Source of the DNA: an uncultured Actinomycetes bacterium
GTDB lineage: Bacteria > Actinomycetota > Thermoleophilia > UBA2241
Length of the DNA stretch: 64,000 bases
Assembly (NCBI GenBank): GCA_963767005.1
Contig: CAVYCN010000002.1
Span: 14,272-78,271, forward strand
Direction: 5' to 3'
Position 1 is the stretch's first letter, and every line of letters begins with the position of its first letter. This document shows, one piece after another, positions 24,456 through 46,884 of the stretch. A program made the position numbers and the translations under genes. The notes beneath the pieces were generated by a model. The model did not search any database and was not told the DNA's origin. It was given only the letters and a program-made list of their open reading frames with translations.

Positions 24456-25256
24456 GTGGCGACCAGAGGAGCGCACGTGGAGCAGCTTGCCGTCGAGACC
24501 ATCCTCGCCGAGCTTGCCGCGCAGGGTAGCGAAGCCGATCGCGCCGGCATGGCGCGCTACGGCATCCGGGTCGACGCGGCGGTCGGTGTCTCGGTGACCG
24601 TGCTGCGTCGCTTCGCCAAGCGGCTCGGGCGCGATCACGAGCTCGCCCTGGCCCTCTGGCGCTCCGGCGTGCACGAGGCCAGGCTGCTGGCCGCCTTCGT
24701 CGACGAGCCCGCCAGGGTCGACCCGGCGCAGATGGACCGCTGGGCGGCCGAGTTCGACTCGTGGGACGTCTGCGACGAGGTCACGACCGACCTGTTCGAC
24801 CAGACCGCGTACGCCTGGGCCAAGGCGGCCGAGTGGGCGCGACGGCCCGAGGAGTTCGTCAAGCGGGCCGGCTTTGCCATGATGGCCGGCCTTGCCGTGC
24901 ACGACAGGACCGCCGCCGACGACGCCTTCAGCGCGCTCTTCCCGCTCGTCGAGCGCGGCGCGTTCGACGAGCGCAACTTCGTGAAGAAGGCCGTGAGCTG
25001 GGCGCTGCGCAACATCGGCAAGCGCGACGCGGCGCTGCACGCGGCCGCGCTTTCGTGCGCGGAGCGCATCCGCGCCGCCGCCGACGAGCGCGCCGGCGGA
25101 CCGCGCGGCGGCGACGCCGCCGCGCGCGCGGCGCGCTGGGTGGCAAACGACGTGACGCGCGAGCTGCGCTCGCCGAAGGTGCTCGCCCGGCTCGCGGGGA
25201 AGAGGGAGCGGGCGGGCAGGGGCTCGTCAGAGCCGCCGCCGCCCGCCGCCCCTTGA
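24456..25256 (+). CDS. DNA alkylation repair enzyme (AlkD/HEAT-repeat family)
   Basis: 266 aa; ...WDVCDEVTTDLF...FVKKAVSWALRNIGKR pattern of the AlkC/AlkD-like family. Confidence 0.6.
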   Translation: MATRGAHVEQLAVETILAELAAQGSEADRAGMARYGIRVDAAVGVSVTVLRRFAKRLGRDHELALALWRSGVHEARLLAAFVDEPARVDPAQMDRWAAEFDSWDVCDEVTTDLFDQTAYAWAKAAEWARRPEEFVKRAGFAMMAGLAVHDRTAADDAFSALFPLVERGAFDERNFVKKAVSWALRNIGKRDAALHAAALSCAERIRAAADERAGGPRGGDAAARAARWVANDVTRELRSPKVLARLAGKRERAGRGSSEPPPPAAP

Positions 25257-25350: not shown

Positions 25351-28005
25351 ATGTCCGACCAGACACCCGTGATGGTCCCGATCGAGCCGCGCTACCCGCG
25401 TCTGCTCGGCCTCATGCGCTGGTTCCAGCGCCACGCGGCGCTGACCGTCGCGGCGGCGGCGGCCCTGATGGCCGCCGTCTTCTTCTTCGACATGCACACC
25501 TCGTCGGGCTGGATCGCCGGCGGTTTCTACCTCATCCCGCTGGCGTTCATCGCGCTGACGCTGCGGCGCCGCACGATCGTCGTCGCCGGGATCGTGGCGG
25601 TGGCGCTCAGCATCCTCGTGATGGCGACCCAGCACACGTTCACGAGCCCGCAACACCTGGTCTATCTGTACCTGCTGATCGCCGCGAGCGGCGGTCTCGT
25701 GCTGCTGTCCGACCTGCTCGCCCAGCTCGACGAGGTCTCGAGCCGGGCCATGACGCGCGCCCGCCTGGCGCAGGCCGAGGCCGACGTCGTCAGCCAGTCG
25801 AGCGGGCGCCGCGAGCCGGGCGACCTCGTCGAGGGCGCGCTGCGGCGCATCGCCGCCGAGCTCGAGGCGAGCGTCGGCGTCGCCTTCTTCGTGCGCGACG
25901 GTCACTGGTGCGGCGAGGCCGCCCTGCGCCAGGGTGCGGCGCTTGCTCCGGACGCGCTGCGCTACCCGTACGACTCGCTCATGCTCCTGCGTCACGCTCT
26001 CGAGCAAGACGAGGTGCTCGCCGTGCCCGACGTGACCGCCTGGTTCGCGGAGCGCGGGCTCACGCCGGCGCCGTACGTGCGGACCCTCGAGCTCGCGAAC
26101 GTGTTGATCGTGCCGCTGCGGGCGCTCGGTGTCGCCCTCGGCGCGATGGTCTTCAGCCGGCCGCCGGACACGCCGCCCTACACCGGGGAGCTGGTGCGCT
26201 TCGCCGGCAGCGTCGGCGGCCACGTGGCCGTCGCCGTCGAGAACGCCCGCCTCGTGGCCGAGCTCGACGCCAAGCAGCGCGGCCTGTCGCTCGTCGTCGA
26301 GTCGAGCCTCGACTTCGCCGCGAGCCTCGAGCCCCGCAAGGTGATCGAGTCCGTCGTCGAACGGCTGGTCGCCCTGCTCGAGGTGAGCGCCTGCGACATC
26401 CACGTGCTCGAGGCCGAGCGCGGCGCCGTGCGCACGGTGGTGAGCTACGAGCACGGCCACTTCGAGTTCGGCGACGTGATCGGCCGGCTGTGGTCGCTCG
26501 CCGAGTACCCCGTGACCGGGCGGGTCGTCGCCGAGGGACGCCCGGTGGTGGTGCTGTCGCCCGACGATCCCGGGCTCTCGGACAGCGAGCGCCGGCTGCT
26601 GGCGCGCAACGGCAAGGTCAGCCAGCTCGACGTGCCCCTGAAGGCGCGCGACCGCGTGGTCGGCGTGGTCGAGCTGTTCGACGACAAGCCGCACGACTAC
26701 TCGCCCGAAGAGATCGAGCTCGTCGAGGCCATCTGCCAGTTCGCCGCCCTGGCCCTCGACAACGCCCACCTCTACGACTCCCAGCGCGAGATCGCCGGCC
26801 GCCTCGAGCGCCTCGCGACCCAGCTGCAGACCTTGCAGGCCGTCTCGCTCAGGCTGGCCCGCCTGCGCGACGAGCCCGCCGTGATGCGCGAGGTGCTCGA
26901 GTCGGGGGCCGACCTGCTCGCAGCCGACGTCGCCGCCTACGCGGTGCGCGACGGTGATGTGGTGGCGGTCAGGGCCTTCCACGACCGCGACGGCTTCTCG
27001 GCGCCCGACGCGGCCGCCGCCGAGAAGCTCGTCGCCGTGCTGCGCGAGGTCACGCCCGACCTCGGCGGGCTCGAGATCGGCGACGGCGTGGCCCAGCAGG
27101 CGATGGCCGATCGCGCCTTCGTGCGGGGGCGGGCGTTGATCGTGCCGGTCAGGCGACAGCGGTCCGACGCCCTCGCCGCGCTCGTCTTCGAGCGCTCCCG
27201 GGCGGACTCGTTCAGCGACGACGACGGTCGCCTCGCGACGACCATGGCGGCCCAGCTCGCGCTCACCCTGCGCAACGTGCGCGCCTTCCAGCGCGAGCAC
27301 GAGATCGCCGAGACGTTCCAGCAGGCGTTGCTCGTGCAGCCGCCGCTGCTGGCCGGGGCCGAGATCGGCGTGCGCTACCAGGCGGCGACGCGCGCGGCCC
27401 GCGTCGGCGGCGACTTCTACGACATCCTGCAGCTCGCCCCCGGCCGCGTGCTGATCGCCGTGGGCGACGTCTGCGGCCGCGGGCTGCAGGCCGCGGTCGA
27501 GACCGCCCTGCTGCGCTACACGCTGCGCGCCTACGCTCAGGAGAGCTCCCCGGGCGAGGCCCTGTCGCGGCTGAACGCGGCGCTCATCGCCCAAGACCCT
27601 GAGATGCCCTTCGCCACCATCGTCCTGGCCCTGCTCGACGTGCGCCGTCGCACGCTCGACTACGCCGTCGCCGGCCACCCGCGGCCGCTCGTGCTGGTCG
27701 GCCGCCGCCGGCTCCCCATCCCCCAGACCGGGGGGTTCCCCGTCTGCATGTTCGAGGGCGAGGCCTACCCGACCAACCGCTGCGTGCTGCCCGAGGACGC
27801 GACCCTCGTCTTCTACACCGATGGGTTGACCGAGGCCCGCCGCGCCGGCCGCATGCTCGGCGAACGGGGTCTGCGCGAGACGATACGGCGTCACCTGGGC
27901 GAGCCGGCTCAGCAGCTCGCCGAGTCGCTCCTGGGCAGGGCGGCGCGCTTTGCCGGGGGCAGCGCCGACGACGACATGGCGGTCGTGGTCGTCAAGCTGC
28001 CCTGA
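25351..28005 (+). CDS. membrane-anchored GAF-domain PP2C-type serine phosphatase (SpoIIE/RsbU family)
   Basis: 884 aa; 4 N-terminal TM helices, two or more GAF domains, C-terminal PP2C (GDFYDIL...VGDVCGRG...FYTDGLTEA). Confidence 0.75.
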   Translation: MSDQTPVMVPIEPRYPRLLGLMRWFQRHAALTVAAAAALMAAVFFFDMHTSSGWIAGGFYLIPLAFIALTLRRRTIVVAGIVAVALSILVMATQHTFTSPQHLVYLYLLIAASGGLVLLSDLLAQLDEVSSRAMTRARLAQAEADVVSQSSGRREPGDLVEGALRRIAAELEASVGVAFFVRDGHWCGEAALRQGAALAPDALRYPYDSLMLLRHALEQDEVLAVPDVTAWFAERGLTPAPYVRTLELANVLIVPLRALGVALGAMVFSRPPDTPPYTGELVRFAGSVGGHVAVAVENARLVAELDAKQRGLSLVVESSLDFAASLEPRKVIESVVERLVALLEVSACDIHVLEAERGAVRTVVSYEHGHFEFGDVIGRLWSLAEYPVTGRVVAEGRPVVVLSPDDPGLSDSERRLLARNGKVSQLDVPLKARDRVVGVVELFDDKPHDYSPEEIELVEAICQFAALALDNAHLYDSQREIAGRLERLATQLQTLQAVSLRLARLRDEPAVMREVLESGADLLAADVAAYAVRDGDVVAVRAFHDRDGFSAPDAAAAEKLVAVLREVTPDLGGLEIGDGVAQQAMADRAFVRGRALIVPVRRQRSDALAALVFERSRADSFSDDDGRLATTMAAQLALTLRNVRAFQREHEIAETFQQALLVQPPLLAGAEIGVRYQAATRAARVGGDFYDILQLAPGRVLIAVGDVCGRGLQAAVETALLRYTLRAYAQESSPGEALSRLNAALIAQDPEMPFATIVLALLDVRRRTLDYAVAGHPRPLVLVGRRRLPIPQTGGFPVCMFEGEAYPTNRCVLPEDATLVFYTDGLTEARRAGRMLGERGLRETIRRHLGEPAQQLAESLLGRAARFAGGSADDDMAVVVVKLP

Positions 28006-28008
28006 GGC

Positions 28009-29154
28009 CTACATGCCGACGGCGCCCGGCGCCGGCCGCGCGGCCCGGCCGGTCTGCACGTAGCTCACGATGCCGGTGCGGTCGACGAAGCCGATCAGGC
28101 GGCCGTCCTGGACCACCGCCAGGTAGTCCGCGTCGCTCGTGGCGAGGCGGTGGAAGGCGGCGGCGGCCGGCTCGTCGGGGCCGATCGTCTCCAGACGGGC
28201 GTGGGGTGTCATGGCATCGCGCACCTGGTCGACACCCCACGCGCTCTCGTCGGTGCGCTGCAGGTCCGACAAGCAGATCATGCCGGCCAGGACGCCGGCG
28301 CCGTCGAGCACCGGCAGGCAGCGCGCGTTGAACGGGGCGAAGTACCCGTTGACGGCCTGACGCAGGGTGACATCTTCGGGGATGCCGGTCGGCGGCACGG
28401 TCATCACCCGGCCGACCGGCACGCCGGCCAGGCTACCCTCGGCGCGGCTCTGGCGCACGGCCATCTGCGAGGCCTGCACCACGAACCAGCCGATGAAGGC
28501 CAGCCAGACGACGCTGACGTAGGCGTCGAGGCCGGTGTGGAACCCGACGAGCGAGGCCAGGCCCAGGGCGATCATGCCGTAGCCGACGGCGAGGCCGGCA
28601 CGCGCAGCCCAGCGGGTCGCTTTGACCGTGTCGCGGGTCAACCACCAGAGGCCGGCGTGCAGCACCTTGCTGCCGTCGAGCGGGAAGCCCGGCAGCATGT
28701 TGAAGACGGCGAGCGCCACGTTGATGAAGCCGAGGTACACGAGCATGGCCTCGGCCACGCTCGAGGCCGGCGCCACCCGGGCGCCGAGCACGCAGGCCAC
28801 GCCGATGACGAGACTCGAGAGCGGGCCGACGCCGGCGAGGACCGCCTCGCGTCCAGGACTCGTCGCCTCGGACTCGATGGTCGAGACGCCGCCCAGCAGC
28901 CAGAGCGTGATGCCGCGCACCTCGATGCCCTGGGCGCGGGCCACGAACGAGTGAGCGAGCTCGTGCGCGAGCACCGACGCGAAGAACAGCAGTGAGCTCA
29001 GGACGGCGACCGTCCAGAGGGTCGCCGTCGACCATGGCTCATAGCGGAACGATGTCCCCACCGTCCAGGTCACGAGCACGAAGATCAACAGCCAGCTCGG
29101 CGACACGCTGATGTCGATGCCGAACAGGCGCGCTATCTTGAAGCCGGACCCCAT
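28009..29154 (-). CDS. site-2 protease family (M50) zinc metalloprotease with tandem CBS domains
   Basis: HELAHSF and NMLPGFPLDG motifs, 6 TM, C-terminal CBS pair. Confidence 0.75.
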   Translation of the reverse strand: MGSGFKIARLFGIDISVSPSWLLIFVLVTWTVGTSFRYEPWSTATLWTVAVLSSLLFFASVLAHELAHSFVARAQGIEVRGITLWLLGGVSTIESEATSPGREAVLAGVGPLSSLVIGVACVLGARVAPASSVAEAMLVYLGFINVALAVFNMLPGFPLDGSKVLHAGLWWLTRDTVKATRWAARAGLAVGYGMIALGLASLVGFHTGLDAYVSVVWLAFIGWFVVQASQMAVRQSRAEGSLAGVPVGRVMTVPPTGIPEDVTLRQAVNGYFAPFNARCLPVLDGAGVLAGMICLSDLQRTDESAWGVDQVRDAMTPHARLETIGPDEPAAAAFHRLATSDADYLAVVQDGRLIGFVDRTGIVSYVQTGRAARPAPGAVGM

Positions 29155-29273
29155 GGTCCTCCTTGTTCGGGGCTCACCCCGGTTGTTCCCCCCGCGCCGA
29201 CCGCCCGAACGACGGCCACGGGCAGGGGCCGGGCGGCGGTGCGGGCCGGCGGCGAGCTGCGGCCGCGGGACGC

Positions 29274-30587
29274 TCAGCCGCCGAGCTCGACGACCGTGTC
29301 GATGCCGTCGGCCACGGCCAGCACGCGGGCCCCGGGGCCGCGCACGCGGCGCGCCGCCGCGACGGCCTCGTCGATCGACTCAAAAGCGAGCAGGCCGCAG
29401 CCCTCGACGAGGTCGGGATCGCGCGCGCCGACAACGCCGACCCGGTACGTCGTCATGAGCTTGGCGACCATGTAGGCGCGCTGGCCGCCGGGGCCGAGCG
29501 GCTCGACGCAGCCGCGGGCGACCAGGTCCATCGGCCGCCTGGTCTCGGCCAGGAGCGCGCCGAAGTTGACCTCGCCGGGGCCGTCGCCGACGCCGAGCGG
29601 CAGCTCGGCGCAGAACGCGATCAGGCCGCCCGGCACGAGCACCGGCCGGGCCGACAGGCCGACATAGGTGGCGGCTCGCGAGGCCTGGTAGAGGCTGCGG
29701 TCCTTGGGCTCCGGCACGCCGGCGACCACCAGGTCGAACGGCGCGTCGTGGCGCCTCACCCAGGTGTCCCCGTGGTCGGCAACGAGGCGGCGCTGGGCGG
29801 CGGCGGGGTCGCCGGCGGCCACGCCGGCGACCCCGCCGCCGCCGTCCACGACGACGTTCAGCGCGAAGCGCAGGGCGGTGGCGGCGGCGATCTCGCGCAG
29901 CGCCTCCTGGAACGGGTTGCCGTCGAGCCGGCAGAGACGCACCTCGGGGCGGTCGAGGAACACGGGGTGGTGGGTCCAGGCGATCGTCTCGCGGCCGGCG
30001 CAGCCGACCGCCACCGCCTTCACGCCGCCTGAGAAGCCGGCGTAGAGGTGGGGCTCGACGATGCCGACCGCCACCACGAGGTCGGCGCCCGCGACCGCCT
30101 CTTCGATCACGATGGGGCCGCGGCCGGCGACCTCGCCCAGCGGCACGTTGCGCGGGCTCATGCCCTGGGCGTCGACCACACGCAGGCGCCGGGCGACGCC
30201 GGCGCCGACGAGGGTCTCGCGCTCGGCCGGGGTCGTCGTGCGGTGCAGCCCGCAGCCGATCACGACGCGGATGCGCTCGTCGCTCACCCCGGCCTGCGAG
30301 AGGCGCTCCAGCAGGGGCGGCAGGAGGGCCGCCACGGGGCAGCCACGGCTCGAGTCGGGCACCACGACGGCGACCTCGCGGGCGCCGGCGGCGAGGGCGG
30401 CGAGGGGTGGCGCCTGGATGGGCGCGTCGAGCGCCGCGGCCACCGCCGCCGGCAGGTCGCCGACCGCGGTCAGGAGCGCCGGTGGGTCGAAGGCGCAGGC
30501 CGCCGTCGCCGGCAGGCAGCGCCGGCCGGCCACCACCCAGGGGGCGCCGGCGAGGCCGTCCGCGCCGGGCGGCGGTGCGACGCTCAT
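29274..30587 (-). CDS. LarA-family (lactate racemase / DUF2088-type, nickel-pincer-nucleotide-dependent 2-hydroxyacid racemase-like) protein
   Basis: 438 aa; ...VEPHLYAGFSGGVKAVAVGC... matches the LarA HxxAGFSGGxK cofactor-tethering region as I recall it; ATGA overlap with the upstream mini-ORF. Confidence 0.65.
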   Translation of the reverse strand: MSVAPPPGADGLAGAPWVVAGRRCLPATAACAFDPPALLTAVGDLPAAVAAALDAPIQAPPLAALAAGAREVAVVVPDSSRGCPVAALLPPLLERLSQAGVSDERIRVVIGCGLHRTTTPAERETLVGAGVARRLRVVDAQGMSPRNVPLGEVAGRGPIVIEEAVAGADLVVAVGIVEPHLYAGFSGGVKAVAVGCAGRETIAWTHHPVFLDRPEVRLCRLDGNPFQEALREIAAATALRFALNVVVDGGGGVAGVAAGDPAAAQRRLVADHGDTWVRRHDAPFDLVVAGVPEPKDRSLYQASRAATYVGLSARPVLVPGGLIAFCAELPLGVGDGPGEVNFGALLAETRRPMDLVARGCVEPLGPGGQRAYMVAKLMTTYRVGVVGARDPDLVEGCGLLAFESIDEAVAAARRVRGPGARVLAVADGIDTVVELGG

Positions 30588-30799
30588 GGCTCCGCCCGGC
30601 GCTGGGGCGGGCAGACCCAGAAGGCGACGAGCGCGGCGATCGCGCCCAGGGGCGGGAAGATCACGGCCAGCAGGAAGCCCCAGACGACCCAGGCCAGACG
30701 CGAGCGGCCGGTGCGCCGGGCGGTGCGCTGGCCGACGTAGAGGCAGACCGGGAGCTGGGCGGCGAACAGGAGCTGGGTGGCCATGGTCGAGAGGTGCAT
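30584..30799 (-). CDS. PLDc_N-like small membrane protein (71 aa)
   Basis: ...RLAWVVWGFLLAVIFPPLGAIAALVAFWV... fits the PLDc_N consensus (KxxWLlxIlxxPxlGxixY); start 3 nt after the regulator stop, stop overlaps the LarA-like start. Confidence 0.45.
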   Translation of the reverse strand: MHLSTMATQLLFAAQLPVCLYVGQRTARRTGRSRLAWVVWGFLLAVIFPPLGAIAALVAFWVCPPQRRAEP

Positions 30800-30801
30800 G
30801 G

Positions 30802-33045
30802 CTACGTGTATCGCCGCAGCAGCCGGGCGACGAGGTCGCGCAGCGCGGCGACCGCCGGTTCGGGGGCGAGCGGCACGGCCGCGCCGGCGAAGTGCAGGAG
30901 CTCGTGGGTGAGCCAGCGCTCGTCGACGTAGGGTTGGGTCGCCAGGCAGGCGCCGCCCGGAACGGGTACCGCGGGCCCGCGCTCGGCCACGTAGCGTGCG
31001 ACGTCGGGCGCGTACCAGACGAGCGCGCTGCGCGGCGCGTGGCGGGCTGCGCTGCGCACGCCCTCGCGGCGGTAGAGCTCGACCTCGACCTCGGGGCGCG
31101 GCGCGAAGCGCTCGCCGCGCAGCGCCGCCCGCTTGGTGGTGGCGATCCGGAAGGTGCGCGTGCCTTGCGAGCGCCGGCACCAGGCGACGTAGTACCACTC
31201 GCCCCGGGTGCGCACCAGCAGGTACGGCTCAACCGTCCGCGTCGTGGTCGTGCCGCTGCCCTCCGACCAGTACTCGATGTCGAGCAGACGGTGCTCGCCG
31301 ACGGCCGCGCTCACCGCGTCGAGGATCGGCTCGGCGGTGGGCAGCCGCTCGCCGGCGGCGACCGACGACGGCGCCGCGTGACGGGCGCGGCGCAGCTTCT
31401 GCGCCGCGCTGCGCAGCGCGGCGCCGTGCTCGATCGGGAGCTGCCCGCCGAGCACCTCGACGGCCAGCAGCAGCGTGTCGACCTGTAGCGGCGACAGGCG
31501 GGCCGGCCGCGCGAACGCCGAGCTCGCCACGTCGCAGGTGACGACCAGGTCCGGCCCCTTGACCTCGGCCCACACGAGGGTGCCCTCGCCGCCGAAGTTG
31601 ACGAGGTTGAGGAGCCGCACGTCGGCGCGCAGCTCGGCCGGCGTGGTGTCGAGCCGGGCGCAGAGCTCGGCGACGGGCACGGGCGTCTCGTCGGCGCCGC
31701 CGGCCGCCCGGCAGACGTCGTGCAAATAGGTGAGCAGCGTGGTCAGGCGGGTGAAGCGGTCGGCTTCGACCTGCCAGTCGTCGGCGCCGCCGGCCGGTGC
31801 CGAGTCGGCGCGGGGAGTGGGCGAGCTGGCGGGCTCGTCGAGCCCGGCGGCGGCGAGCAGCGCGGCGGCGCGGCCGGCCTCGAGCGGCGGCCGCTCGAGC
31901 CGCCCGGCCAGGCGGCCGAGCTGGGCGCGCAGCTCGGCGCGCAGCGCCGGCGGCTCGACGAGCTCGGCCGCCGCCCCCATCGAGAGCACCCACTCGATGA
32001 GCTGCTGAGCCGAGTCGTAGGCGGTCGAGAACAGGATGTCGGTCTCGTCGCCGGCGCCGCCCGTGCCCGCATCACCGCCGTCGCCGCCCGCCCCGGAGCC
32101 GTCACTGCCGCCCGTGCCGGCGTCGCGGCCACCCTCGCCGGCGTTCAGGCGCGCGTCGTCGCCGGCCGGCGCGATCGTGCCGCAGCGCGCGAAGTGGGCC
32201 TCGACCCACCAGGCCATGCCGGCCGCCACGCGCACGACGGCGTGGCCGACCGGCTCGCCGAGCTGCCAGGGCGGGCGGTCGAGGTAGCGGTCGATCGAGA
32301 AGTCGAGCGGCGCGCCGAAGTCGTGCGGCGCGCGCGTCGCGAAGGTCACGCGCGAGCGCAGGCGCGACAACCGGAAGGTGCGGATCGCCGTGCGCAAGTG
32401 GCAGAAGCCGACGAGGTACCACTCGTCGCCGACGAGCAGCAGGCCGTACGGGTCGACCGTGCGCTCGCGCTCCTCGTCGCGGCCGATCGAGTAGTAGAGG
32501 AAGGTCACCGTCTTGCCGGCGGCGACTGCCTGTTGCAGCTTGGGCAGGGCGCCGGCGGCGCGGCGCGCCTCGCGCTCGGGTAGCACGCTGATCGGTGTGG
32601 GGGCGGCCGGCGCGAGCAGCTCGGGCCGGCCGTGGGTCAGGCTGAGCAGGGCGAGGCGCAGCGGCTCGCTGTAGGCGAAGCGGTCCTCGAGCACGAACAG
32701 GCAGGCGGCGAGCGCCGAGAGCTCGGCCGGTGTGAGCTCGATGGCCGGCAGGTAGTAGGCCGACGCCGGCAGCGAGTAGAGCTCGGCCTCGCCACCCTCG
32801 CCGCCATCGGCGGCGATCGCGATGCCCAGGGCGGTGAGCTCGGCGCGGTCCTCGTAGAAGCGCCGCTTGAAGGCGTCGTCGCTCATGAGCGCATAGCCTT
32901 CGACGCGACGACGGATCTCGGCCGCGGTGGCGGGCCGCCCCGGGCGCGAGAGCAGGAAGGCGACGAGCGACAGCCGCCGGATCAGCTTGTCGGCGTCCTT
33001 CGAGAAGCCCTCCTCGCGGGGCGCGCCGCCCTGTCCGGGGCTCAC
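30802..33045 (-). CDS. pafBC: fused PafB/PafC-like transcriptional regulator (two HTH-WYL modules in one 747-aa polypeptide)
   Basis: module 1 HTH (DKLIRRLSLVAFLLSRPGRPATAAEIRRRVEGY) plus WYL (WYLVGFCHLRTAIRTFRLSRL); Gly/Asp-rich linker; module 2 (RFTRLTTLLTYLHDV...GGEGTLVWAEV) plus WYL (WYYVAWCRRSQGTRTFRIATT); GTG start overlaps the GNAT stop (GTGA). Confidence 0.7.
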   Translation of the reverse strand: MSPGQGGAPREEGFSKDADKLIRRLSLVAFLLSRPGRPATAAEIRRRVEGYALMSDDAFKRRFYEDRAELTALGIAIAADGGEGGEAELYSLPASAYYLPAIELTPAELSALAACLFVLEDRFAYSEPLRLALLSLTHGRPELLAPAAPTPISVLPEREARRAAGALPKLQQAVAAGKTVTFLYYSIGRDEERERTVDPYGLLLVGDEWYLVGFCHLRTAIRTFRLSRLRSRVTFATRAPHDFGAPLDFSIDRYLDRPPWQLGEPVGHAVVRVAAGMAWWVEAHFARCGTIAPAGDDARLNAGEGGRDAGTGGSDGSGAGGDGGDAGTGGAGDETDILFSTAYDSAQQLIEWVLSMGAAAELVEPPALRAELRAQLGRLAGRLERPPLEAGRAAALLAAAGLDEPASSPTPRADSAPAGGADDWQVEADRFTRLTTLLTYLHDVCRAAGGADETPVPVAELCARLDTTPAELRADVRLLNLVNFGGEGTLVWAEVKGPDLVVTCDVASSAFARPARLSPLQVDTLLLAVEVLGGQLPIEHGAALRSAAQKLRRARHAAPSSVAAGERLPTAEPILDAVSAAVGEHRLLDIEYWSEGSGTTTTRTVEPYLLVRTRGEWYYVAWCRRSQGTRTFRIATTKRAALRGERFAPRPEVEVELYRREGVRSAARHAPRSALVWYAPDVARYVAERGPAVPVPGGACLATQPYVDERWLTHELLHFAGAAVPLAPEPAVAALRDLVARLLRRYT

Positions 33046-33392
33046 GGCGCGGCGCCGAGGTCGAGGGCGAGCAGCGTGCGGTACTCGTCGGCGAAGCCAC
33101 GCCTGGCATAGAAGCCGCTGAGACCGTGGCTGAGCTCGCCGTCGGGCGTGACGGTGACGAGCAGCGCCTGGCAGCCCCGCTGCCGGGACCAGCGGGTCAC
33201 GGCGCCGATGAGGGCGCCGGCGATCCCGTGGCCGCGCGCGGCCGGCACCACATAGAGGTCCTCGAGCTCGGCCGAGCGGGTGTACTCGACCGAGGCGGTC
33301 CAGGCGGCGGTGGCGATGCCGACCGCCCGGCGGGCGCCGCCGTCCTCGCGAAAGGCAAGGACGGCGGCGCAGTGCACCGGGTCGGCCAGCAT
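33042..33392 (-). CDS. GNAT family N-acetyltransferase (annotated from first in-frame ATG; N-terminal region appears frame-disrupted)
   Basis: motif A LEDLYVVPAARGHGIAGALI; a good GNAT N-terminus continues upstream in the same frame without a canonical start, while the RBS-linked ATG at 33514 is in the +1 frame. Confidence 0.5.
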   Translation of the reverse strand: MLADPVHCAAVLAFREDGGARRAVGIATAAWTASVEYTRSAELEDLYVVPAARGHGIAGALIGAVTRWSRQRGCQALLVTVTPDGELSHGLSGFYARRGFADEYRTLLALDLGAAP

Positions 33393-33572
33393 CTCGGCGA
33401 GGCCGCGGCGCTGGGCGTCGGGCGGCGTCGTGAAGCCCTCCTCGCTGAAGAAGCGGCGCAGGAGGTCGACTGCGACCTCGACGGTCGCCTCGCCGACCGG
33501 TTCGATGACGACATCGGTCGTCGTGACCTCCTTCGGCTGTCCGCCGCCGGCCCGCCGGCGCGTCCGGCGTCG

Positions 33573-35030
33573 CTAGACGGCCTGGCGCTCGGCCGCGGCG
33601 ATGATCGCGTCGAACTCGCGGCCGAGGTCGTCGGGAAAGCCGATCGGCTCGGCCGCCAGGATCTCGCGCACCTTGTCCTGCGCCTTTTCGACCGTGCTCT
33701 TGCCGCCGGCCGCCTTCCAGGCCTCGTAGTTGCCCGTCTCGCCGAGCTTGGCCTGCCAGAGCTCGCGCACGTGCTTGCGGGTGTGCCCGTCGAACAGGTA
33801 GTTGCCGTTGAAGCCCATCTTGACGATAAGGTCGCGGGCGATCGTCTCGTCGGTCACCTCGACGCCGCGCAGCATGCGCTTGACCATGCCGAGGATCTCG
33901 TCGTCGACCACCATGTTCTCGAGGCACAGGATGCGCGAGCCGTCGAGCAGGCCGGTGCCGAACGTCACGTCGGCGCCGTTGGCGTAGGCCATGAACATGG
34001 CGAGCGCGTTCTCGTAGGCGCTCTGGATACCGGGCTCCTTGGCCGTGGTCGCACCGGCGCCGTACCAGGCCGGCACGCCGTAGAAGTCGGCCATGTGGCC
34101 CTGCACGGCGCGGATCAGGATGGCTTCGGGCGAGTTGCTCGCGTAGGCCCCGCTCCCCATGTACATCGCGGTCGGGCCGCCGCCGTGGATGACCGGCGCG
34201 CCCGGGCTGGCGAGCTGTACGAGCGTCGCGCCGCTCACGAACTCGGCGTTGTTCACGACGGCCGATCCAGCGATCGTGATGGGGCCGGTCGCGCCGAGGA
34301 TCGGCATGGGGTAGAAGCTGATCGGGATACCGGCGTCGGCGAGGGTGAGGGCGAGGTCCATGCCGAAGCGCTCCTGGTGGAGCGGGCTCACCGTGCAGAT
34401 GATGGCGGTGAAGGTCGGCCGCAGGCGCAGCTCGTCGCGGCCGCCGGCGAGGGCGACGCCCATCTCGATCAGGCTGCGCGCCTCCCAGTCCTCCTTGATA
34501 GAGACGACGATGCTGTGCTTGGCCGAGTTGCGCACGCAGGCGTCGAACTCGTGCAGCACGCGGCTCTGGATGGGGCAGTCCTGGGCCGAGACGACCGCGC
34601 TCGTCGCACTCACATTGTCGAGCGCCTGGACGACGCGGGCGCAGTTCTCGAGGTCTTCCTTGCGCGAGGGCCGTACCACGCCGGTGACCGGGTCGCGGTA
34701 GGACACGCCGCAGCCGTCGGACGAGATGTAGATGTGCTCGCCGTCGAGCGGCAGGTCGTACTCGGGCGTGCGGCCGCCCAGGGTGAACTCGTGCGGCACG
34801 CTGGCGAGCGCCCGCTCGACGACCGCGCCCGGGATCTTCGCGACCGAGGTCTCCCGGTCGACCGTGGCGCCGTGCTCCTCGAGCACGTCGAGCGCCCGCT
34901 GCGAGAAGAACATGACGCCGACGTTCTCGATCACGTCGAGCGTCGCCTCGTGGATCTGACGGATCTCGGCGGCGTCGAGGAGATCGAGCTTGACGCGCTT
35001 GCCGACATAGCAGCCGTCTGCGTAGGTCAT
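33573..35030 (-). CDS. MttB-superfamily methyltransferase (trimethylamine methyltransferase family, non-pyrrolysine type)
   Basis: 485 aa; collinear similarity to MttB/MtgB as I remember it (e.g. PTFTAIICTVSPLHQERFGMDLAL..., ...MGFNGNYLFDGHTRKHV...); no in-frame amber. Confidence 0.8.
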   Translation of the reverse strand: MTYADGCYVGKRVKLDLLDAAEIRQIHEATLDVIENVGVMFFSQRALDVLEEHGATVDRETSVAKIPGAVVERALASVPHEFTLGGRTPEYDLPLDGEHIYISSDGCGVSYRDPVTGVVRPSRKEDLENCARVVQALDNVSATSAVVSAQDCPIQSRVLHEFDACVRNSAKHSIVVSIKEDWEARSLIEMGVALAGGRDELRLRPTFTAIICTVSPLHQERFGMDLALTLADAGIPISFYPMPILGATGPITIAGSAVVNNAEFVSGATLVQLASPGAPVIHGGGPTAMYMGSGAYASNSPEAILIRAVQGHMADFYGVPAWYGAGATTAKEPGIQSAYENALAMFMAYANGADVTFGTGLLDGSRILCLENMVVDDEILGMVKRMLRGVEVTDETIARDLIVKMGFNGNYLFDGHTRKHVRELWQAKLGETGNYEAWKAAGGKSTVEKAQDKVREILAAEPIGFPDDLGREFDAIIAAAERQAV

Positions 35031-35271
35031 GGTGGTCGGTCCTTTCGGCGTGAAGGGGTGCGCGACGGGAGCGCTCGCGGCCGCCAGGCCCGGGCTCCCG
35101 CGCGTCCGACGGGACGGATGGTCCTACGCGGCGGGGTGGTCGCGCGCCGCCGACTTGAGGCGAGTCCGCGTCAAGAGCGCTCCTTCAGCTGGTGCCGGCC
35201 GCCCCGCTCCCTTCGCGGGGAGCGCCAGAAAGGTGTCGCCGACTGCCCAGAGTCTACATCGCCGCGAGCCG

Positions 35272-36717
35272 TCACTGGGCCGCCGCGGCGATGATCGCGT
35301 CGAACTCGCGGCCGAGGCCGGCGGGAAACTCGGGCACCGGTGCGGCGAGCAGCTCCTCGACCCGGGCGTGGGCCACGTCGGCCGTGCCGCGCGCGCCGGC
35401 CGTCTTCCAGGCCTCGTAGGTGCCGGTCTCGCCCAGCCTGGCCTGCCAGAGCTCGCGCACGTGCTTGCGGGTGTGGGAATCGAACAGGTAGTCGCCCTTG
35501 AAGCCCATCCGGGCGATGAGGTCGACGGCCAGGTGCTCGCGGTCGACCGTCACGCCCTGCAGCAGGCGGCTCACCATGCCGAAGACCTCGTCGGCCACGA
35601 CGAGTTCCTCGAGCGACATCTGCGTGACCGAGTCGAGCAGGCCGGCCCCGAACAGAAAATCGGCGCCGGCGAACAGCTCGAGCATGAGCCCGAGTGTGTT
35701 CTCGTAGGCCGCCTGCACGCCGGGCTCCTTGCCCTTCGTGCCGCCCCAGCCCAGGCCGGCGGGCATGCCGTAGAAGGCCGCCATCTGGCCCTGCACGGCG
35801 CGCAGCAGGAGCGCCTCGGGCACGTTGGCGAAGTAGGCTCCGGTGCGCATGAACAGGGCGGTCGGTCCGCCGGCGTGGATGAGCTTGGCGCCGGGGTGCG
35901 CGAGCTGGATCGCGGTGATGGCGCCCAGGATCTCGGCGTTGTTGACGACCGCGGTGCCGGCCGGCGTCACCGGCGCCGTCGCGCCCAGGATCGGCATGGG
36001 GTAGAGCATCATCGGGATGCCGGCCTCGGCGAGGGTGAAGGCGAGGTCCATGCCGAAGCGCTCCTGGTGCAGCGGGCTTACCGTGCACAGGATGACCGAG
36101 AAGGTGGGGCGCTCGTCGAGCTCGCGGGCGCCGCCGGCGACCGCCTCGGCCATGCGGATCAGGCTGCGCGCCTCCCAGTCCTCTTTGAGTGAGACGACGA
36201 TGGTGTGCTTGGCCGACGAGCGCATGCAGGCGTCGAACTCGTGCAGCACGCGCGTCTCGACCGGGCTGTCCTGGGCCGACACGAGGGCCGACGTGGCTGA
36301 GATGTTGTCGAGCCCCTGCACCACGCGGGCCGCCGCCGCGACGTCGGCCTTGGTCGAGGGCCGCACCGAGCCGTCGTGCTCGCGCACGAACGTGGCGCAG
36401 CCGTCGGAGGTGATGTAGGCGTGCTCGCCGTCGAGCGGCAGGTCGTACTCGGGGGTGCGGCCGCCGAGCGTGAAGCGCCGCGGCAGGGTGGCCAGGGCCC
36501 GCTCGACCACCTCGGGCGGCAGCTTGGCGACCGTGGTCTCGTAGTCGACCTCGGCGCCGGCCTCGGCCAGCACGTCGAGGGCGCGCTTCGAGTAGTAGAC
36601 GCAGCCGACCTCGTGCAGGATGTCGAGCGAGGTCTCGTGGATGCGGCGCACCTCGTCTGGCGAGACGATCTGGAGCGGCCGGCGCGAGCCGACGCGGCGG
36701 GTATCGGCGTGGGTCAC
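35272..36717 (-). CDS. MttB-superfamily methyltransferase, tandem paralog (about 70% identity to the upstream copy)
   Basis: 481 aa; AAGGAGA RBS plus GTG start; same conserved blocks as the first copy. Confidence 0.8.
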   Translation of the reverse strand: MTHADTRRVGSRRPLQIVSPDEVRRIHETSLDILHEVGCVYYSKRALDVLAEAGAEVDYETTVAKLPPEVVERALATLPRRFTLGGRTPEYDLPLDGEHAYITSDGCATFVREHDGSVRPSTKADVAAAARVVQGLDNISATSALVSAQDSPVETRVLHEFDACMRSSAKHTIVVSLKEDWEARSLIRMAEAVAGGARELDERPTFSVILCTVSPLHQERFGMDLAFTLAEAGIPMMLYPMPILGATAPVTPAGTAVVNNAEILGAITAIQLAHPGAKLIHAGGPTALFMRTGAYFANVPEALLLRAVQGQMAAFYGMPAGLGWGGTKGKEPGVQAAYENTLGLMLELFAGADFLFGAGLLDSVTQMSLEELVVADEVFGMVSRLLQGVTVDREHLAVDLIARMGFKGDYLFDSHTRKHVRELWQARLGETGTYEAWKTAGARGTADVAHARVEELLAAPVPEFPAGLGREFDAIIAAAAQ

Positions 36718-37829
36718 GGGTTCTCCTTGCGGTCGGGACGGACGACGGCGCCGGCGCTTGCCGGCGTACGGGTGACGAAGCGGCGGGAGACGAACGGCGA
36801 GGTCACGGCGCGCACGAGGGCGTCGTAGTCGACGGCGAAGGCAACGGTGTCGCCCGGGCGCAGCTCGCGCGGCGTGACGAGCACGGCCACGTCGCTCGTC
36901 ATGCCGGCGACCCAGGCCCCGTCGAGCAGCGGCCGCAGGCCACCGGGCTCGCAGTCGCGCCGGCCGAGGGCGATCAGCGTGTACCAGGCGTCGTGGTCGG
37001 GCAGCGCCGTGTCGGGGGTGTGGCCGAACGCGTCGCGGCCGGCGGGGCCGACCGGCGCCGGCGGCTTGCGCGACGACTCGAGCACGGTCGCGGTGAGCAC
37101 GGGGTCGAAGCGTTCGAGGCCGGCGAGCGTCTCGCCCGAGACGAAATCGTAGCCGTAGAGGAGCCCGCCGCCGGCGCGCAGCTCGGTGCGAAACCGCGGC
37201 GTGAAGTCGTCGAGGCAGCTGAGGCAGACGGTCCCGCCGACGGACAGCAGCGGAGCGTCGAGGTCGGCGGCGTCGGCGACCGTGGCCAGGACGTCCTCGG
37301 CCGCGCGCAGCAGCGCGACGCTGGGGAGCTGGCCCGACAGGCAGGCGAAGTTCACGGCGATGCCGCCGAGGGCGGTGCCGGGCAGGCCGGCGAGGCGGCT
37401 CGCCGCCTCGCCGGCCTGCCCGGGCAGCACGCCCTCGCGGCGATCGCCGAGGTCGACGGTGAGCAGCAGCTCGATCGGCAGGCCTGGCGCGTGGCGGCCG
37501 AGCTCCTCGGCCGTGCCCGGGTCGCACAGCAGGATTCGTTCGGCGACCTGGGCCGCCGTCACGACGTCGTGGGGTCCGGGGGCGCGCAGCAGCGTGAGCG
37601 GCACGAGGGCGTGAGCGGCGAGCCGCACCAGCGCGGGCAGGCGCGAGTCGGCGAGGCCGGTGCAGCCGGCCTCGAGCATCGCCTGCCCGACGGCCGGCTC
37701 GCCGTCGACGGCCTTGGTCACGCCGACGAGCTCGATGCCGCGGGCGAGCAGGCGCGCGGCGAGGCTGCCCGTAGCGGCCGCGATGGCGTCGAGGTCGAAG
37801 GTCAGCTCAGGTTCCGTGGCGGTCCTGCG
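36714..37829 (-). CDS. alanine-racemase-fold (fold-type III PLP, YhfX-like) protein; start codon unresolved
   Basis: LTFDLDAIAAATG...ELVGVTKAVDG (candidate PLP lysine) N-terminal barrel; stop overlaps the MttB paralog start; no ATG/GTG/TTG near the expected N-terminus (the nearest GTG at 37928 would add a poly-Arg leader). Confidence 0.5.
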   Translation of the reverse strand, partial: RRTATEPELTFDLDAIAAATGSLAARLLARGIELVGVTKAVDGEPAVGQAMLEAGCTGLADSRLPALVRLAAHALVPLTLLRAPGPHDVVTAAQVAERILLCDPGTAEELGRHAPGLPIELLLTVDLGDRREGVLPGQAGEAASRLAGLPGTALGGIAVNFACLSGQLPSVALLRAAEDVLATVADAADLDAPLLSVGGTVCLSCLDDFTPRFRTELRAGGGLLYGYDFVSGETLAGLERFDPVLTATVLESSRKPPAPVGPAGRDAFGHTPDTALPDHDAWYTLIALGRRDCEPGGLRPLLDGAWVAGMTSDVAVLVTPRELRPGDTVAFAVDYDALVRAVTSPFVSRRFVTRTPASAGAVVRPDRKENP

Positions 37830-37928
37830 GTCGCGGAAACGCCGGCGGCGGCGCCGCCGGCGGGGACAGTATAATCGGACGGCGACGACGCCCCCAAATC
37901 GGGCCCAACGGTCTCGGCCGGACGGCAC

Positions 37929-43792: not shown

Positions 43793-44236
43793 ATGAACAT
43801 CTCCGCCAAGAGCAAGTACGCGGTGCGCGCGCTGGTCGAGCTGGCCGAGCGTACGCAGGGCCAGCCCGGCCAGCTCGTCCGGCTCACCGACGTGGCCAAG
43901 GCGCGCAGCATCCCGCTGCAGTTCCTCGAGCAGCTCTTCGCCGGGCTGCGCCGGGCCGGCATCGTCAAGAGCCGGCGCGGCGCGAGCGGCGGCTTCGTGT
44001 TCGCGCGTCCGCCCGGCCAGGTCACGGTGCTCGACGTGGTCGAGACCCTCGACGGGCTCGTCTCGCCGGCGATCTGTACGCAGGGCGAGTGCGAGCGCAT
44101 CGAGGAGTGTGGCGCGGCGGCGGTGTGGCTCGAGGCCAAGGAGGCGCTCGAGCAGGTGCTGCGTCAGACGACGATCGCCGACCTCGCCGAGCGCGAGCTC
44201 GCCCGCGCCCCCCACGAAGCCATGTACTACATCTGA
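43793..44236 (+). CDS. Rrf2 family transcriptional regulator (IscR/CymR-like)
   Basis: N-terminal w[21 protein letters not shown]..., GxxGGF motif, 3 Cys ([12 protein letters not shown]). Confidence 0.8.
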
Positions 44237-44255
44237 CAGCCAGCCGGAGGACCGT

Positions 44256-45209
44256 GTGAAGATCGCAGACGACATCACCCAGTTGATCGGCGCTACGCCG
44301 CTCGTGCACCTGCGCGCCCTCTCGGAGCGCAGCGGCGCCACCATCGTCGGCAAGCTCGAGTCGTTCAACCCGGGTGGCAGCGTCAAGGACCGCATCGGCC
44401 TGTCGATGATCGAGGCGGCCGAGCGCGCCGGCATGATCGCGCCGGGTCGCACGACGATCGTCGAGCCGACCAGCGGCAACGCCGGCATCGCCCTGGCCAT
44501 GGTCACCGCCGCGCGCGGGTATCGCCTGATCATCACCATGCCGGAGACCTTCAGCGTCGAACGTCGTACGCTGCTACGCGCGTACGGTGCCAAGCTCGTG
44601 CTCACGCCCGGTCCCGAGGGCATGCGCGGCGCGATCGAGCGCGCCGCCGAGGTCGTCGCCGAGACGCCCGACAGCTTCATGCCGCAGCAGTTCGAGAACC
44701 CGGCCAACCCCGCGATCCACCACGACGCGACCGGCGACGAGATCTGGCGCGACACCGAGGGCGCCGTCGACGTCTTCGTGGCCGGCATCGGCACCGGCGG
44801 CACCATCACCGGCGTGGGTCGGCTCCTCAAGGAGCGCAAGCCCGCGGTCAGGGTCGTAGGGGTCGAACCCATCGAGTCGACCGTCCTGGCCGGAGGGCAG
44901 CCGGGGCCGCACCGCATCCAGGGTATCGGCGCCGGCTTCGTGCCCGCCGTGCTCGACACCGCGGTCTACGACGAGGTGCTCGCCGTGACCGGCGAGCAGG
45001 CGTTCGAGACGGCGCGCGCCCTGGCGGCCGGCGAGGGCCTCCTCGTCGGCATCTCTGCCGGCGCGAACGCGTTCGTCGCCGCCGAGGTCGGTGCCCGACC
45101 GGAGAACGCGGGCAAGCTCATCGTCACCATCCTGTGCGACACCGGCGAGCGCTACCTGTCGACCACCCTGTTCGCCGAGCAGAGCGCCTCGGCGATGATC
45201 GGCGGCTGA
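44256..45209 (+). CDS. cysK: cysteine synthase A (O-acetylserine sulfhydrylase)
   Basis: PLP-binding lysine motif [28 protein letters not shown]; GGAGG RBS plus GTG. Confidence 0.85.
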
Positions 45210-46084
45210 TGGCCGACGCCGTGCACGAAGGCGCCGTGGGCGCCTCGCTGATCGCCGCCGTCGGCGCGCTGCTCGAGCCGCTCGAGCGGGCGCTGCGGCC
45301 GCTCGAGCACGTCTGCGTCGCCTTCTCCGGCGGCGTCGACTCGAGCGTCGTGCTGGCGGTCGCCGTGCGCGTGCTCGGAGCGTCGCGGGTGCTCGCCTTT
45401 ACGGCCGTGTCCGAGACCTACCGCGACGACGAGCTCGTGGCGGCCCGCGCCCTCGCGGACTCGCTCGGCGTGCGTCACCTCACCTGGCAGACCCGCGAGC
45501 TCGACGACCCGCGCTTCGTGGCCAACACGCGCGATCGCTGCTACGCGTGCAAGGCGACGCTGCTCGAGGCCATGGAGCGGGCGGCGGCCGAGGCCGGTGC
45601 GACCGCCCTGGTCGACGGCGCCAACCGCGACGACCTGGGCGACGAGCGCCCCGGCATGCGGGCCGCCGCCGAGCGCGGCGTACGGCACCCGCTGATCGAG
45701 GCCGGGCTCGGCAAGGCGGCCGTGCGCACCCTCGCCCGTGCCCTCGACCTGCCGGTCTGGAGCAAGCCCGCCGAAGCCTGTCTGGCCTCGCGCGTCGCGT
45801 ATGGCGAGGCCGTCACGGCCGACAAGCTGCGTCAGGTGGCGGCGGCCGAGGACGTGCTGCGCGAGCTCGGTCTGGGCCCTGAGCTGCGCGTCCGTCACCA
45901 CGGCGACGTCGCCCGTGTCGAGGTGCCGGCCGAGCAGGTCGAGCGCGCCGCCGGCGCCGAGGTGCGGACGGCCGTCGACCGCCGCCTGCGGGCGCTCGGC
46001 TTCACGTACGTCGCCCTCGACCTGCAGGGCTTTCGCTCGGGCAGCATGAACGAAGCCCCACGACCCGAAAGGAGCGCCCCGTGA
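45208..46084 (+). CDS. LarE-type PP-loop ATP pyrophosphatase (TIGR00268 family sulfur transferase)
   Basis: PP-loop AFSGGVDSS; CxxC (DRCYACKA) plus downstream EACLASRV Cys aligned with the LarE active-site loop; ATGA overlap with cysK stop and GTGA overlap with cysE start. Confidence 0.7.
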
Positions 46085-46884
46085 ACCGCCCGCTCGCCAC
46101 GATGGCCGATGCCGCCGAGGGCGCGTGGTGCGCCGTGCGGGGCGGCCGGCTGCGGCACTTCGTGGCGCGCATGCGCCGCGACGTGCAGGCCGTCAAGGAG
46201 CGCGATCCGGCGGCCACCAGTTCGTTCGAGATCGTCACCTCGTACTCGGGTCTGCACGCCCTCTGGCTGCACCGCGTCGCCCATCCTCTGTACCGCTGCG
46301 GTGTGCCGATCGTGCCGCGCTGGCTCTCGCAGTTCAACCGGTTCCTGACCGGCATCGAGATCCACCCCGGGGCGCAGGTCGGCGAGGGCTTCTTCATCGA
46401 CCACGGCTCGGGTGTCGTGATCGGCGAGACCACCGAGATCGGCGACAACGTCACCCTCTACCAGGGCGTCACCCTCGGCGGCACAGGCAAGGAGCACGGC
46501 AAGCGCCACCCCACGCTCGGCGACAACATCGTGGTGGGCTCGGGAGCGAGCGTGCTCGGCTCGATCAGGATCGGCGACAACGCCAAGATCGGCTCGGGCA
46601 GCGTGGTCGTGCACGACGTGCCGGCCAACGCCACCGTGGTCGGCAACCCGGGTCACCCGGTGGTGGTCGACGGTCAGCGCGTCGGCATCCCCGACATCGA
46701 CTACACCCACCTGCCCGACCCGGTGGCCGAGGCGCTCAAGTGCGTCGTCGATCGCATCATCGCCCTCGAGCAGGAGCTCGACGAGATCGACCCGGCGCGC
46801 AAGGATCGCCGCCGCTCGCGCATTGCCGTCAACCAGGCGACCCTCGACCGCCTGCTGCACTTCAGCGACGGGGCCGGGATCTAG
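46081..46884 (+). CDS. cysE: serine O-acetyltransferase
   Basis: left-handed beta-helix hexapeptide repeats, DHGSGVVIGETTEIGDNV... Confidence 0.85.
   Translation: MNRPLATMADAAEGAWCAVRGGRLRHFVARMRRDVQAVKERDPAATSSFEIVTSYSGLHALWLHRVAHPLYRCGVPIVPRWLSQFNRFLTGIEIHPGAQVGEGFFIDHGSGVVIGETTEIGDNVTLYQGVTLGGTGKEHGKRHPTLGDNIVVGSGASVLGSIRIGDNAKIGSGSVVVHDVPANATVVGNPGHPVVVDGQRVGIPDIDYTHLPDPVAEALKCVVDRIIALEQELDEIDPARKDRRRSRIAVNQATLDRLLHFSDGAGI

Follow-up and report, generated by a model that had tools for sequence, protein, structure and literature searches.

A single-chain PafBC-type regulator gene is linked to a LarA-family gene in an uncultured lineage of Thermoleophilia

We analysed a stretch of 64,000 nucleotides, referred to here as the window, from an uncultured Actinomycetes bacterium of the thermoleophilian group UBA2241 (GenBank assembly GCA_963767005.1, contig CAVYCN010000002.1, positions 14,272 to 78,271 of the forward strand). 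The DNA is chromosomal and has 73% G+C; the dcw cluster of cell-division and cell-wall genes, identified from translations of open reading frames (ORFs), occupies its 56-64 kb part. The ORF list and codon-position G+C delineate a run of minus-strand genes. They encode an Ala_racemase_N protein, two MttB-family proteins, a GNAT acetyltransferase, a PafBC-like regulator of 747 residues (30802-33045), a protein of 71 residues (30584-30799), a LarA-family homologue of 437 residues (29274-30587) and a protein with site-2 protease and CBS domains (S2P/CBS). The subject of this work is the association of the PafBC-like regulator with the LarA homologue. A first-pass annotation, made from the sequence alone, had described the GNAT, regulator, small-protein and LarA genes as a translationally coupled operon, and four co-directional minus-strand ORFs are indeed present where it had put them. 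The GNAT stop codon (TGA, 33044-33042) overlaps the regulator start codon (GTG, 33045-33043) in a GTGA junction, and the stop codon of the small ORF overlaps the LarA start in an ATGA junction (30587-30584), both as described. The gap between the regulator gene and the small ORF had been given as 3 nt and is in fact 2 nt (30801-30800). Public gene calls on the same DNA have identical coordinates for the regulator, small-ORF, LarA and S2P/CBS genes.

The LexA-independent response of mycobacteria to DNA damage has PafBC as its master activator; in genomes, PafBC is usually partnered by the Pup-proteasome system. In the window regulator, Pfam detects two WYL domains (E 3e-43), two WCX domains and HTH_PafC (PF19187; residues 454-553, 38.6 bits, cut-off 32). 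The PafB-like half, consisting of winged helix-turn-helix (wHTH), WYL and WCX domains, spans approximately residues 1-404, and the PafC-like half (HTH_PafC-WYL-WCX) approximately residues 429-747. Sequence search of the PDB retrieved PafBC of entry 6sj9 as the best match (2.7e-23), followed by PafC and PafB of Mycobacterium smegmatis in entry 7p5x; the PafC chain (7p5x_AX) was aligned to regulator residues 456-746. An AlphaFold2 model based on 19 homologues contains two wHTH-WYL-WCX modules (mean predicted local distance difference test score, pLDDT, 68; predicted template modelling score, pTM, 0.44). Foldseek search with this model places 6sj9 on top, with the whole chain aligned over 758 columns (E 1.4e-28), and then M. 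smegmatis PafBC, DriD, CapW and BrxR. Since packing of the domains is uncertain and Foldseek TM-scores are low (0.24-0.27), only domain content and order were taken from the model. The proposal of a single 747-residue PafB-then-PafC fusion is thus supported by Pfam, PDB search, AlphaFold2 and Foldseek. The search for homologues yielded 862 at E <= 1e-10, and the best 120 of the 862 are mostly full-length (685-775 residues). Natural PafBC fusions of Kocuria rhizophila, of Thermobifida fusca and also of Arthrobacter aurescens are described in PMC6789036, so the fusion as such is already known and not new.

A Gly/Asp-rich stretch of the regulator had been interpreted as the linker joining both halves. 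It is actually an insertion within the first WCX domain (approximately residues 296-335; 32041-32160, minus strand), as positions 30-76 of the Pfam WCX profile resume past it, at residue 334. Residues 298-333, situated between strands 289-293 and 337-343 of the AlphaFold2 model, have pLDDT below 50, and the insertion is predicted to be disordered. It occurs in only four of the 19 aligned homologues and is present in the window protein and its closest relatives. The variable linker between the halves corresponds approximately to residues 405-428 (31762-31833, minus strand), which have pLDDT below 50 as well and form the gap-rich, least conserved block of the alignment.

The WYL domain of the PafB-like half contains the sequence FRLSR, all five residues of which are identical with the PafB part of A. 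aurescens PafBC in the PDB search alignment. R225 and R228, together with Y210, are invariant in the 19 homologues. Two arginines of M. smegmatis PafB are essential for binding of single-stranded DNA (ssDNA), the corresponding pair of PafC being dispensable (PMC11804915). From the motif rather than from direct alignment, we infer that R225 and R228 would be the counterparts of R211 and R214 of M. smegmatis PafB.

The assignment of the 437-residue protein to the LarA family is borne out by Pfam, by alignments with solved structures and by conserved active-site residues. Lar_N is matched with 148 bits (E 2e-43) and LarA_C with 23.0 bits, slightly below the cut-off of 25. The best PDB match is 9eia (2.9e-44), and solved LarA structures align at residues 43-428 and 49-434 of the window protein. 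Counterparts of Lactiplantibacillus plantarum LarA residues D72, R75, H108, H174, K184, H200, Y294 and Q295 are kept, while K298 is replaced by arginine; these aligned key residues, the arginine included, are invariant in 18 homologues. Specifically, H115, H180, K190 and H206 of the window protein align with H108, H174, K184 and H200 of L. plantarum, of which His108 and His174 are catalytic, Lys184 tethers the cofactor and His200 is a nickel ligand. The window protein has an intact active site of the nickel-pincer nucleotide family, with all catalytic and cofactor-binding residues kept.

NCBIfam models do not name the protein more closely. The best of them, LarAH6 malate racemase, scores 245 against a cut-off of 500, and the next ones score 228 (cut-off 462), 204 (460) and 164 (540); the protein fits no named LarAH group that has an NCBIfam model (LarA, LarAH5, LarAH6, LarAH10 and others). 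Comparison with 1.84 billion cluster representatives retrieved a few entries of its own lineage at 52% identity or more. Since identity then falls to 42%, and the score from 372 to 280 bits, the window LarA is, judged by these similarities, a member of a discrete, uncharacterised subgroup.

A larE gene for the sulfur transferase of nickel-pincer cofactor synthesis is located 14.5 kb from the LarA gene, on the plus strand (45209-46084; NCBIfam TIGR00268, 319.5 bits, cut-off 150). Its translation contains the PP-loop SGGVDS and three Cys residues, and its presence nearby supports the prediction of a working nickel-pincer cofactor pathway. The cysteines are found in CYAC and ACLASR, a pattern which resembles the [4Fe-4S]-dependent type of LarE and not the sacrificial single-Cys type. 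Region 43793-46884 (plus strand) carries a gene for an Rrf2 regulator, then cysK, larE and a cysE-like gene; stop and start codons overlap between cysK (ending at 45209) and larE, and between larE and the cysE-like gene (starting at 46081). The position of larE within cysteine-synthesis genes is unusual.

The 71-residue protein encoded between the regulator and LarA has two hydrophobic stretches and was read by eye as a two-helix membrane protein. Its ORF is kept at the same position in relatives. Residues C19, P49 and G52 are invariant among orthologues and Q15 and W37 almost invariant; common to the members is also a basic loop, after which comes LNWL..GF....P..G. The label PLDc_N, given to it previously, did not hold, for Pfam yielded nothing for the window protein even at E up to 10. 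Searched at E up to 1, 17 orthologues matched 30 families, and PLDc_N (PF13396) is not among the 25 of these that were listed.

Separated only by the small ORF in the window, the regulator and LarA genes are also linked in related genomes. When 185,579 species genomes were scanned with a PafBC profile, 78 loci were retrieved, every one of them from this lineage. The scan relied on two very specific peptide patterns, which is why only this lineage was returned; no cultured Thermoleophilia or other actinobacteria were among the loci. Of the 65 loci that extend far enough downstream, 62 have LarA after PafBC, a count that includes three loci with split LarA matches. The reverse scan of metagenomes with a LarA profile returned 80 loci, 54 of which have at least 700 nt of upstream sequence; the gene upstream of LarA is PafBC in all 54. 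In addition, PafBC, small ORF and LarA are consecutive in all six look-ups of PafBC homologues that are 56-100% identical to that of the window. Both counts confirm the three genes as conserved neighbours, a point that the first-pass annotation had proposed for checking. A protein identical with the window regulator is also encoded on long contigs from soil metagenome assemblies. Relatives that bear a taxon label are uncultured Thermoleophilia or Actinomycetota metagenome-assembled genomes, with the exception of one labelled Deltaproteobacteria, which is probably mis-binned.

The compact junctions are conserved likewise. The regulator gene and the small ORF share 4 bp in 34 of 55 loci and lie at most 5 nt apart in another 12; between the small ORF and LarA, a 4-bp overlap is seen in 44 of 52 loci with a placeable LarA start. 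Since the same junctions recur in relatives, this tight packing is, on comparison of the sequences, more than chance. The link between PafBC and LarA persists where the small ORF is lost (loci L023, L030 and L077), LarA then following PafBC directly. It persists also without upstream MttB genes (L030, L059 and L076), which are absent in some loci and 1-4 kb away in others. A public call of 1684 residues (P0276) was considered as a PafBC-LarA fusion and rejected: it is a frameshift-ridden call running through GNAT, PafBC, small ORF and LarA, and the sequence behind this read-through is high-GC and stop-poor.

Outside the lineage, four of the nearest outgroup LarA homologues have genes for Ddl-like ATP-grasp ligases, an Ldh_2 dehydrogenase or unrelated proteins as neighbours, and no WYL gene is found beside any of these four, which are 42% identical to the window LarA or less. 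In two outgroup loci (L167:3192-6525 and L168:5001-7450), whose LarAs are 42% and 38% identical to that of the window, respectively, LarA is directly followed by a D-Ala-D-Ala-ligase-like ATP-grasp gene. This arrangement recalls the role of L. plantarum LarA, which supplies D-lactate for D-Ala-D-Lac cell-wall precursors.

Further, signals for expression of the unit were sought in its upstream regions. In most relatives, a -10-like TANNNT hexamer precedes the first gene of the unit, which is either PafBC or GNAT; the hexamer is most often found as GGTAGCAT or GTAAGCT. Directly after the hexamer comes a hairpin, GC-rich and 10-18 bp long, and then a Shine-Dalgarno sequence and the start codon. 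The element is found in loci L007-L086, where it precedes the start of PafBC or GNAT by approximately 35-90 nt (for instance L040:9918-9983, L020:9939-9998 and L016:9433-9468). At least 10 pairs are formed in 50 of 55 distinct sequences, with several pair types per stem position and a median z-score of -3.6 against shuffles; the hairpin sequence varies between subclades yet remains paired. Because the stem begins immediately after the hexamer in 40 of the 55, some of it may be located before the transcription start. Rfam contains no family for this hairpin. RNAalifold gave no consensus for the hairpins of relatives because MAFFT misaligned the stems around variable-length loops, and the stems were analysed sequence by sequence. 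Taken at sequence level, the element suggests a separate promoter for the unit in relatives, along with a structured 5' region.

In the window and its closest relatives, GNAT begins approximately 40-60 nt after the MttB stop codon, and the window unit may be read through from mttB. A scan of 27.9-38.2 kb for the sigma-70 consensus found no promoter-like sites, and the only terminator-like site in this region is located at 29146-29159 on the plus strand.

Two genes at the ends of the unit belong to it less firmly. The GNAT gene (33042-33512, minus strand) lacks a canonical start codon. Its assignment as acetyltransferase stands (Pfam Acetyltransf_1, E 3.4e-12), but the start proposed at 33530 does not, as 33530-33528 reads GAG. 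From the upstream MttB stop to the ATG at 33392, the frame contains no ATG, GTG or TTG; the public call, a protein of 116 residues, starts at this first in-frame ATG. In relative L003 (87% identical), the start codon of the orthologue is a GTG, aligned with GTC at 33512-33510 of the window. Since the orthologue's GTG reads GTC here, the window GNAT would be either a truncated product of 116 residues or initiated at a non-canonical codon. A C-to-T change beside the GTC creates an out-of-frame ATG at 33514 (minus strand), which opens an ORF of 105 residues whose composition is not protein-like. The sequence at the GNAT start is the same in L001 and L002, two further assemblies of this population. 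GNAT is part of the unit only in a subclade with PafBC at least 69% identical to that of the window, and 9 of 70 genome loci have the gene directly upstream.

At the opposite end, the S2P/CBS gene (28009-29154, minus strand) encodes a Peptidase_M50 domain and two CBS domains according to Pfam, in agreement with its earlier assignment. It lies 119 nt downstream of LarA and has its own Shine-Dalgarno sequence. The suggestion that it belongs to the same unit is not supported: it is a frequent neighbour, since 41 of 59 genome loci and 23 of 48 metagenome loci have it no more than 500 nt downstream of LarA, yet a dispensable one. GNAT, in the subclade only, and S2P/CBS are therefore accessory neighbours outside the operon core.

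Upstream of the unit, region 33573-37860 (minus strand) carries genes for two MttB-family methyltransferase paralogues, approximately 63% identical to each other (35272 to approximately 36720, and 33573-35030), and, 5' of this pair, an ornithine-racemase-like Ala_racemase_N gene (approximately 36714-37860). The MttB genes are directly upstream of the unit in most relatives. Since neither of the two scanned translations contains an internal stop, the window MttB proteins are presumably non-pyrrolysine members of the family. On the other side, an AlkD-like DNA_alkylation repair gene (24456-25256, plus strand) and a GAF-SpoIIE (PP2C) phosphatase gene (25351-28005, plus strand) converge on the S2P end of the operon and belong to the neighbourhood conserved throughout the lineage. 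The closeness of a DNA-repair gene to a regulator of the PafBC type could be significant or coincidental. Elsewhere in the window, a tmRNA gene was detected at 2449-2798 on the plus strand (Rfam, 146.7 bits, gathering score 47); ARAGORN reported no tRNA or tmRNA in the window.

Which function would unite a PafBC-type regulator and a LarA homologue? With a probability of roughly 0.55, we favour an ssDNA-sensing activator that serves as the PafBC of this lineage and is translated from one mRNA together with a small membrane protein and an active enzyme of the LarA type. The first conserved gene of this lineage-specific operon would encode a single-chain transcription factor. By homology with mycobacterial PafBC, damage-derived ssDNA would bind to the WYL/WCX groove of the PafB-like half. 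Binding would free two different winged-helix domains, and these would recruit RNA polymerase to target promoters. As the regulator gene appears translationally coupled to the small-protein and LarA genes, the three products would come from one mRNA. The LarA homologue would presumably racemise or epimerise a 2-hydroxyacid.

Several observations weigh against this explanation. In the regulator itself, the WYL domain of the PafC-like half reads FRIATT: R633 is kept, and the expected second arginine is replaced by T636, invariant in the homologues. As for the cofactor, larB and larC are absent among the scanned ORFs of the window. The genomic context is not that of PafBC either. No Pup-ligase or proteasome domain was found in the window ORFs, which were scanned with Pfam except for the dcw ORFs at 56-64 kb, inspected by translation only; nor are pafA or proteasome genes present within 10 kb in six relatives, in agreement with the first-pass annotation. 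The mycobacterial RecA-NDp consensus, tTGTCRgtg-N8-TAnnnT, was searched as TGTCRGTG-N8-TANNNT, and this check proposed by the first-pass annotation yielded no window match at up to one mismatch. In 2.1 Mb of related loci, there is no exact match, and two one-mismatch matches at the canonical 8-nt spacing. The GGTAGCAT element of relatives has no match upstream of the window operon and its count in the window is at chance; the closest relatives of the window are also without the hexamer-hairpin element. Concerning linkage, LarA and the small ORF are cleanly deleted in three loci (L032, L033 and L038) that retain PafBC. All linked loci come from one uncultured Thermoleophilia lineage, and gene order is conserved there over approximately 12 kb, including the GAF-SpoIIE and AlkD-like genes of the opposite strand. 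For this reason shared descent contributes to the linkage pattern, and we infer, rather than demonstrate, a functional link between PafBC and LarA.

Some of these observations would suit a different role of the fused WYL protein, namely that of a dedicated local regulator of the small-protein/LarA module, comparable to SiwR of M. smegmatis with its neighbouring genes. It would respond to a ligand other than damage-derived ssDNA and would not control a global DNA-damage regulon. The ligand could be, for instance, a nucleotide-like metabolite or what the LarA enzyme produces. The reciprocal one-to-one linkage to a distinct LarA subfamily speaks for such a regulator, and the missing pafA/proteasome context, the missing RecA-NDp motif and the loss of one of two conserved arginines in the PafC-like WYL point in the same direction. 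WYL regulators that control adjacent genes or sense different ligands, cyclic di-GMP for example, are documented (PMC10693628 and PMC11880434). Nevertheless, the PafB-like WYL retains the ssDNA-binding residues and the entire protein is co-linear with genuine PafBC. Furthermore, a regulator without other targets should be lost along with LarA, whereas three genomes keep the regulator after loss of LarA, and no conserved operator-like sequence was identified. We consider local regulation of this kind unlikely.

The same three genomes, in which LarA was lost without loss of PafBC, are compatible with the adjacency of both genes reflecting inheritance in a slowly rearranging region of one lineage, with no functional meaning. 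The gene order shared across the same loci on both strands fits this, and the compact junctions would be typical of high-GC genomes, where four-base gene overlaps are common. On the other hand, mere inheritance does not account well for the behaviour of the flanks: MttB, S2P and GNAT vary, while PafBC, small ORF and LarA stay contiguous with conserved overlaps, and PafBC is upstream of every LarA orthologue of the reverse scan. The promoter-like hexamer and hairpin before the first gene in most relatives also suggest one transcription unit. Adjacency by descent alone seems doubtful to us.

A stronger claim than the one we favour would be that PafBC, small protein and LarA constitute one functional module. 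Either the divergent PafC-like WYL would sense the substrate or product of the enzyme or its nucleotide-derived cofactor, or 2-hydroxyacid isomerisation would be an output of the DNA-damage response. This we regard as decidedly improbable. Least credible of all is a role in anti-phage defence, in which the WYL regulator would be combined with LarA, the small protein or S2P as effector: defence systems often have WYL regulators at their flanks (PMC9122601), and generic WYL models of PADLOC match the regulator, but PADLOC has no match for GNAT, small protein, LarA or S2P and so lends no support to LarA as the effector envisaged earlier, the LarA active site is intact and metabolic, and the locus occupies a conserved chromosomal neighbourhood instead of a variable island.

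Returning to the PafBC-type activator co-expressed with a LarA-type enzyme, its components belong to known families, and it is the linkage of PafBC with LarA that looks new. The claim that coupling of a WYL regulator to a LarA-like enzyme had not been described agrees with the literature covered, since a full-text search and keyword searches in papers on the LarA superfamily and PafBC revealed no paper linking the two. The operon is a lineage-restricted arrangement, in which, throughout a whole lineage, the regulator is coupled to a putative nickel-pincer enzyme in place of its Pup-proteasome partner. If this coupling is functional, it would mean that the damage response has an additional, new output or that WYL domains have a new ligand class, and it would offer a starting point for the role of the uncharacterised LarA subgroup. 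Should the three genes indeed form a functional module, this would be the first WYL regulator tied to nickel-pincer biochemistry; if only gene order was inherited, the locus is ordinary. As the host organisms are uncultured, tests will need heterologous expression.

Among known systems, the regulator is most similar to the natural fusion PafBC of A. aurescens (6SJ9). Both carry, within a single chain, tandem wHTH-WYL-WCX modules in the order B then C, which a short disordered linker connects; the second half has an HTH of the PafC type, and the PafB-like WYL has the FRxxR arginine pair. Their sequence identity is only about 20%. The window regulator differs from PafBC of 6SJ9, 7P5X and 9FND in having threonine for the second arginine of the PafC-like WYL and a 40-residue Gly/Asp insertion in the first WCX. 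In contrast to the A. aurescens and M. smegmatis proteins, its gene is not adjacent to pafA and the Pup-proteasome genes and is followed by those for the small membrane protein and LarA. In mycobacteria, the genes downstream of pafC are presumably tatA and tatC.

SiwR of M. smegmatis and DriD of Caulobacter crescentus are activators of genotoxic-stress genes that are also composed of wHTH, WYL and WCX domains; the signal to which such regulators respond is genotoxic stress or ssDNA. In the fold comparison, structures of DriD rank next after PafBC, and SiwR controls adjacent genes. Unlike the window regulator, which is of the fused heterodimer type, both are single-module homodimers without a LarA partner.

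The LarA homologue, in turn, shares the two-domain fold over its full length with L. plantarum LarA (5HUQ), with the LarAH5 and LarAH6 malate racemases and with 9EIA, a broad-spectrum LarA among the characterised homologues compared. Relative to L. plantarum LarA, K298 is replaced by arginine and R183 by valine. Finally, where characterised LarAs are accompanied by a permease, a dehydrogenase or larBCE, the constant upstream partner of the LarA described here is a transcription factor.

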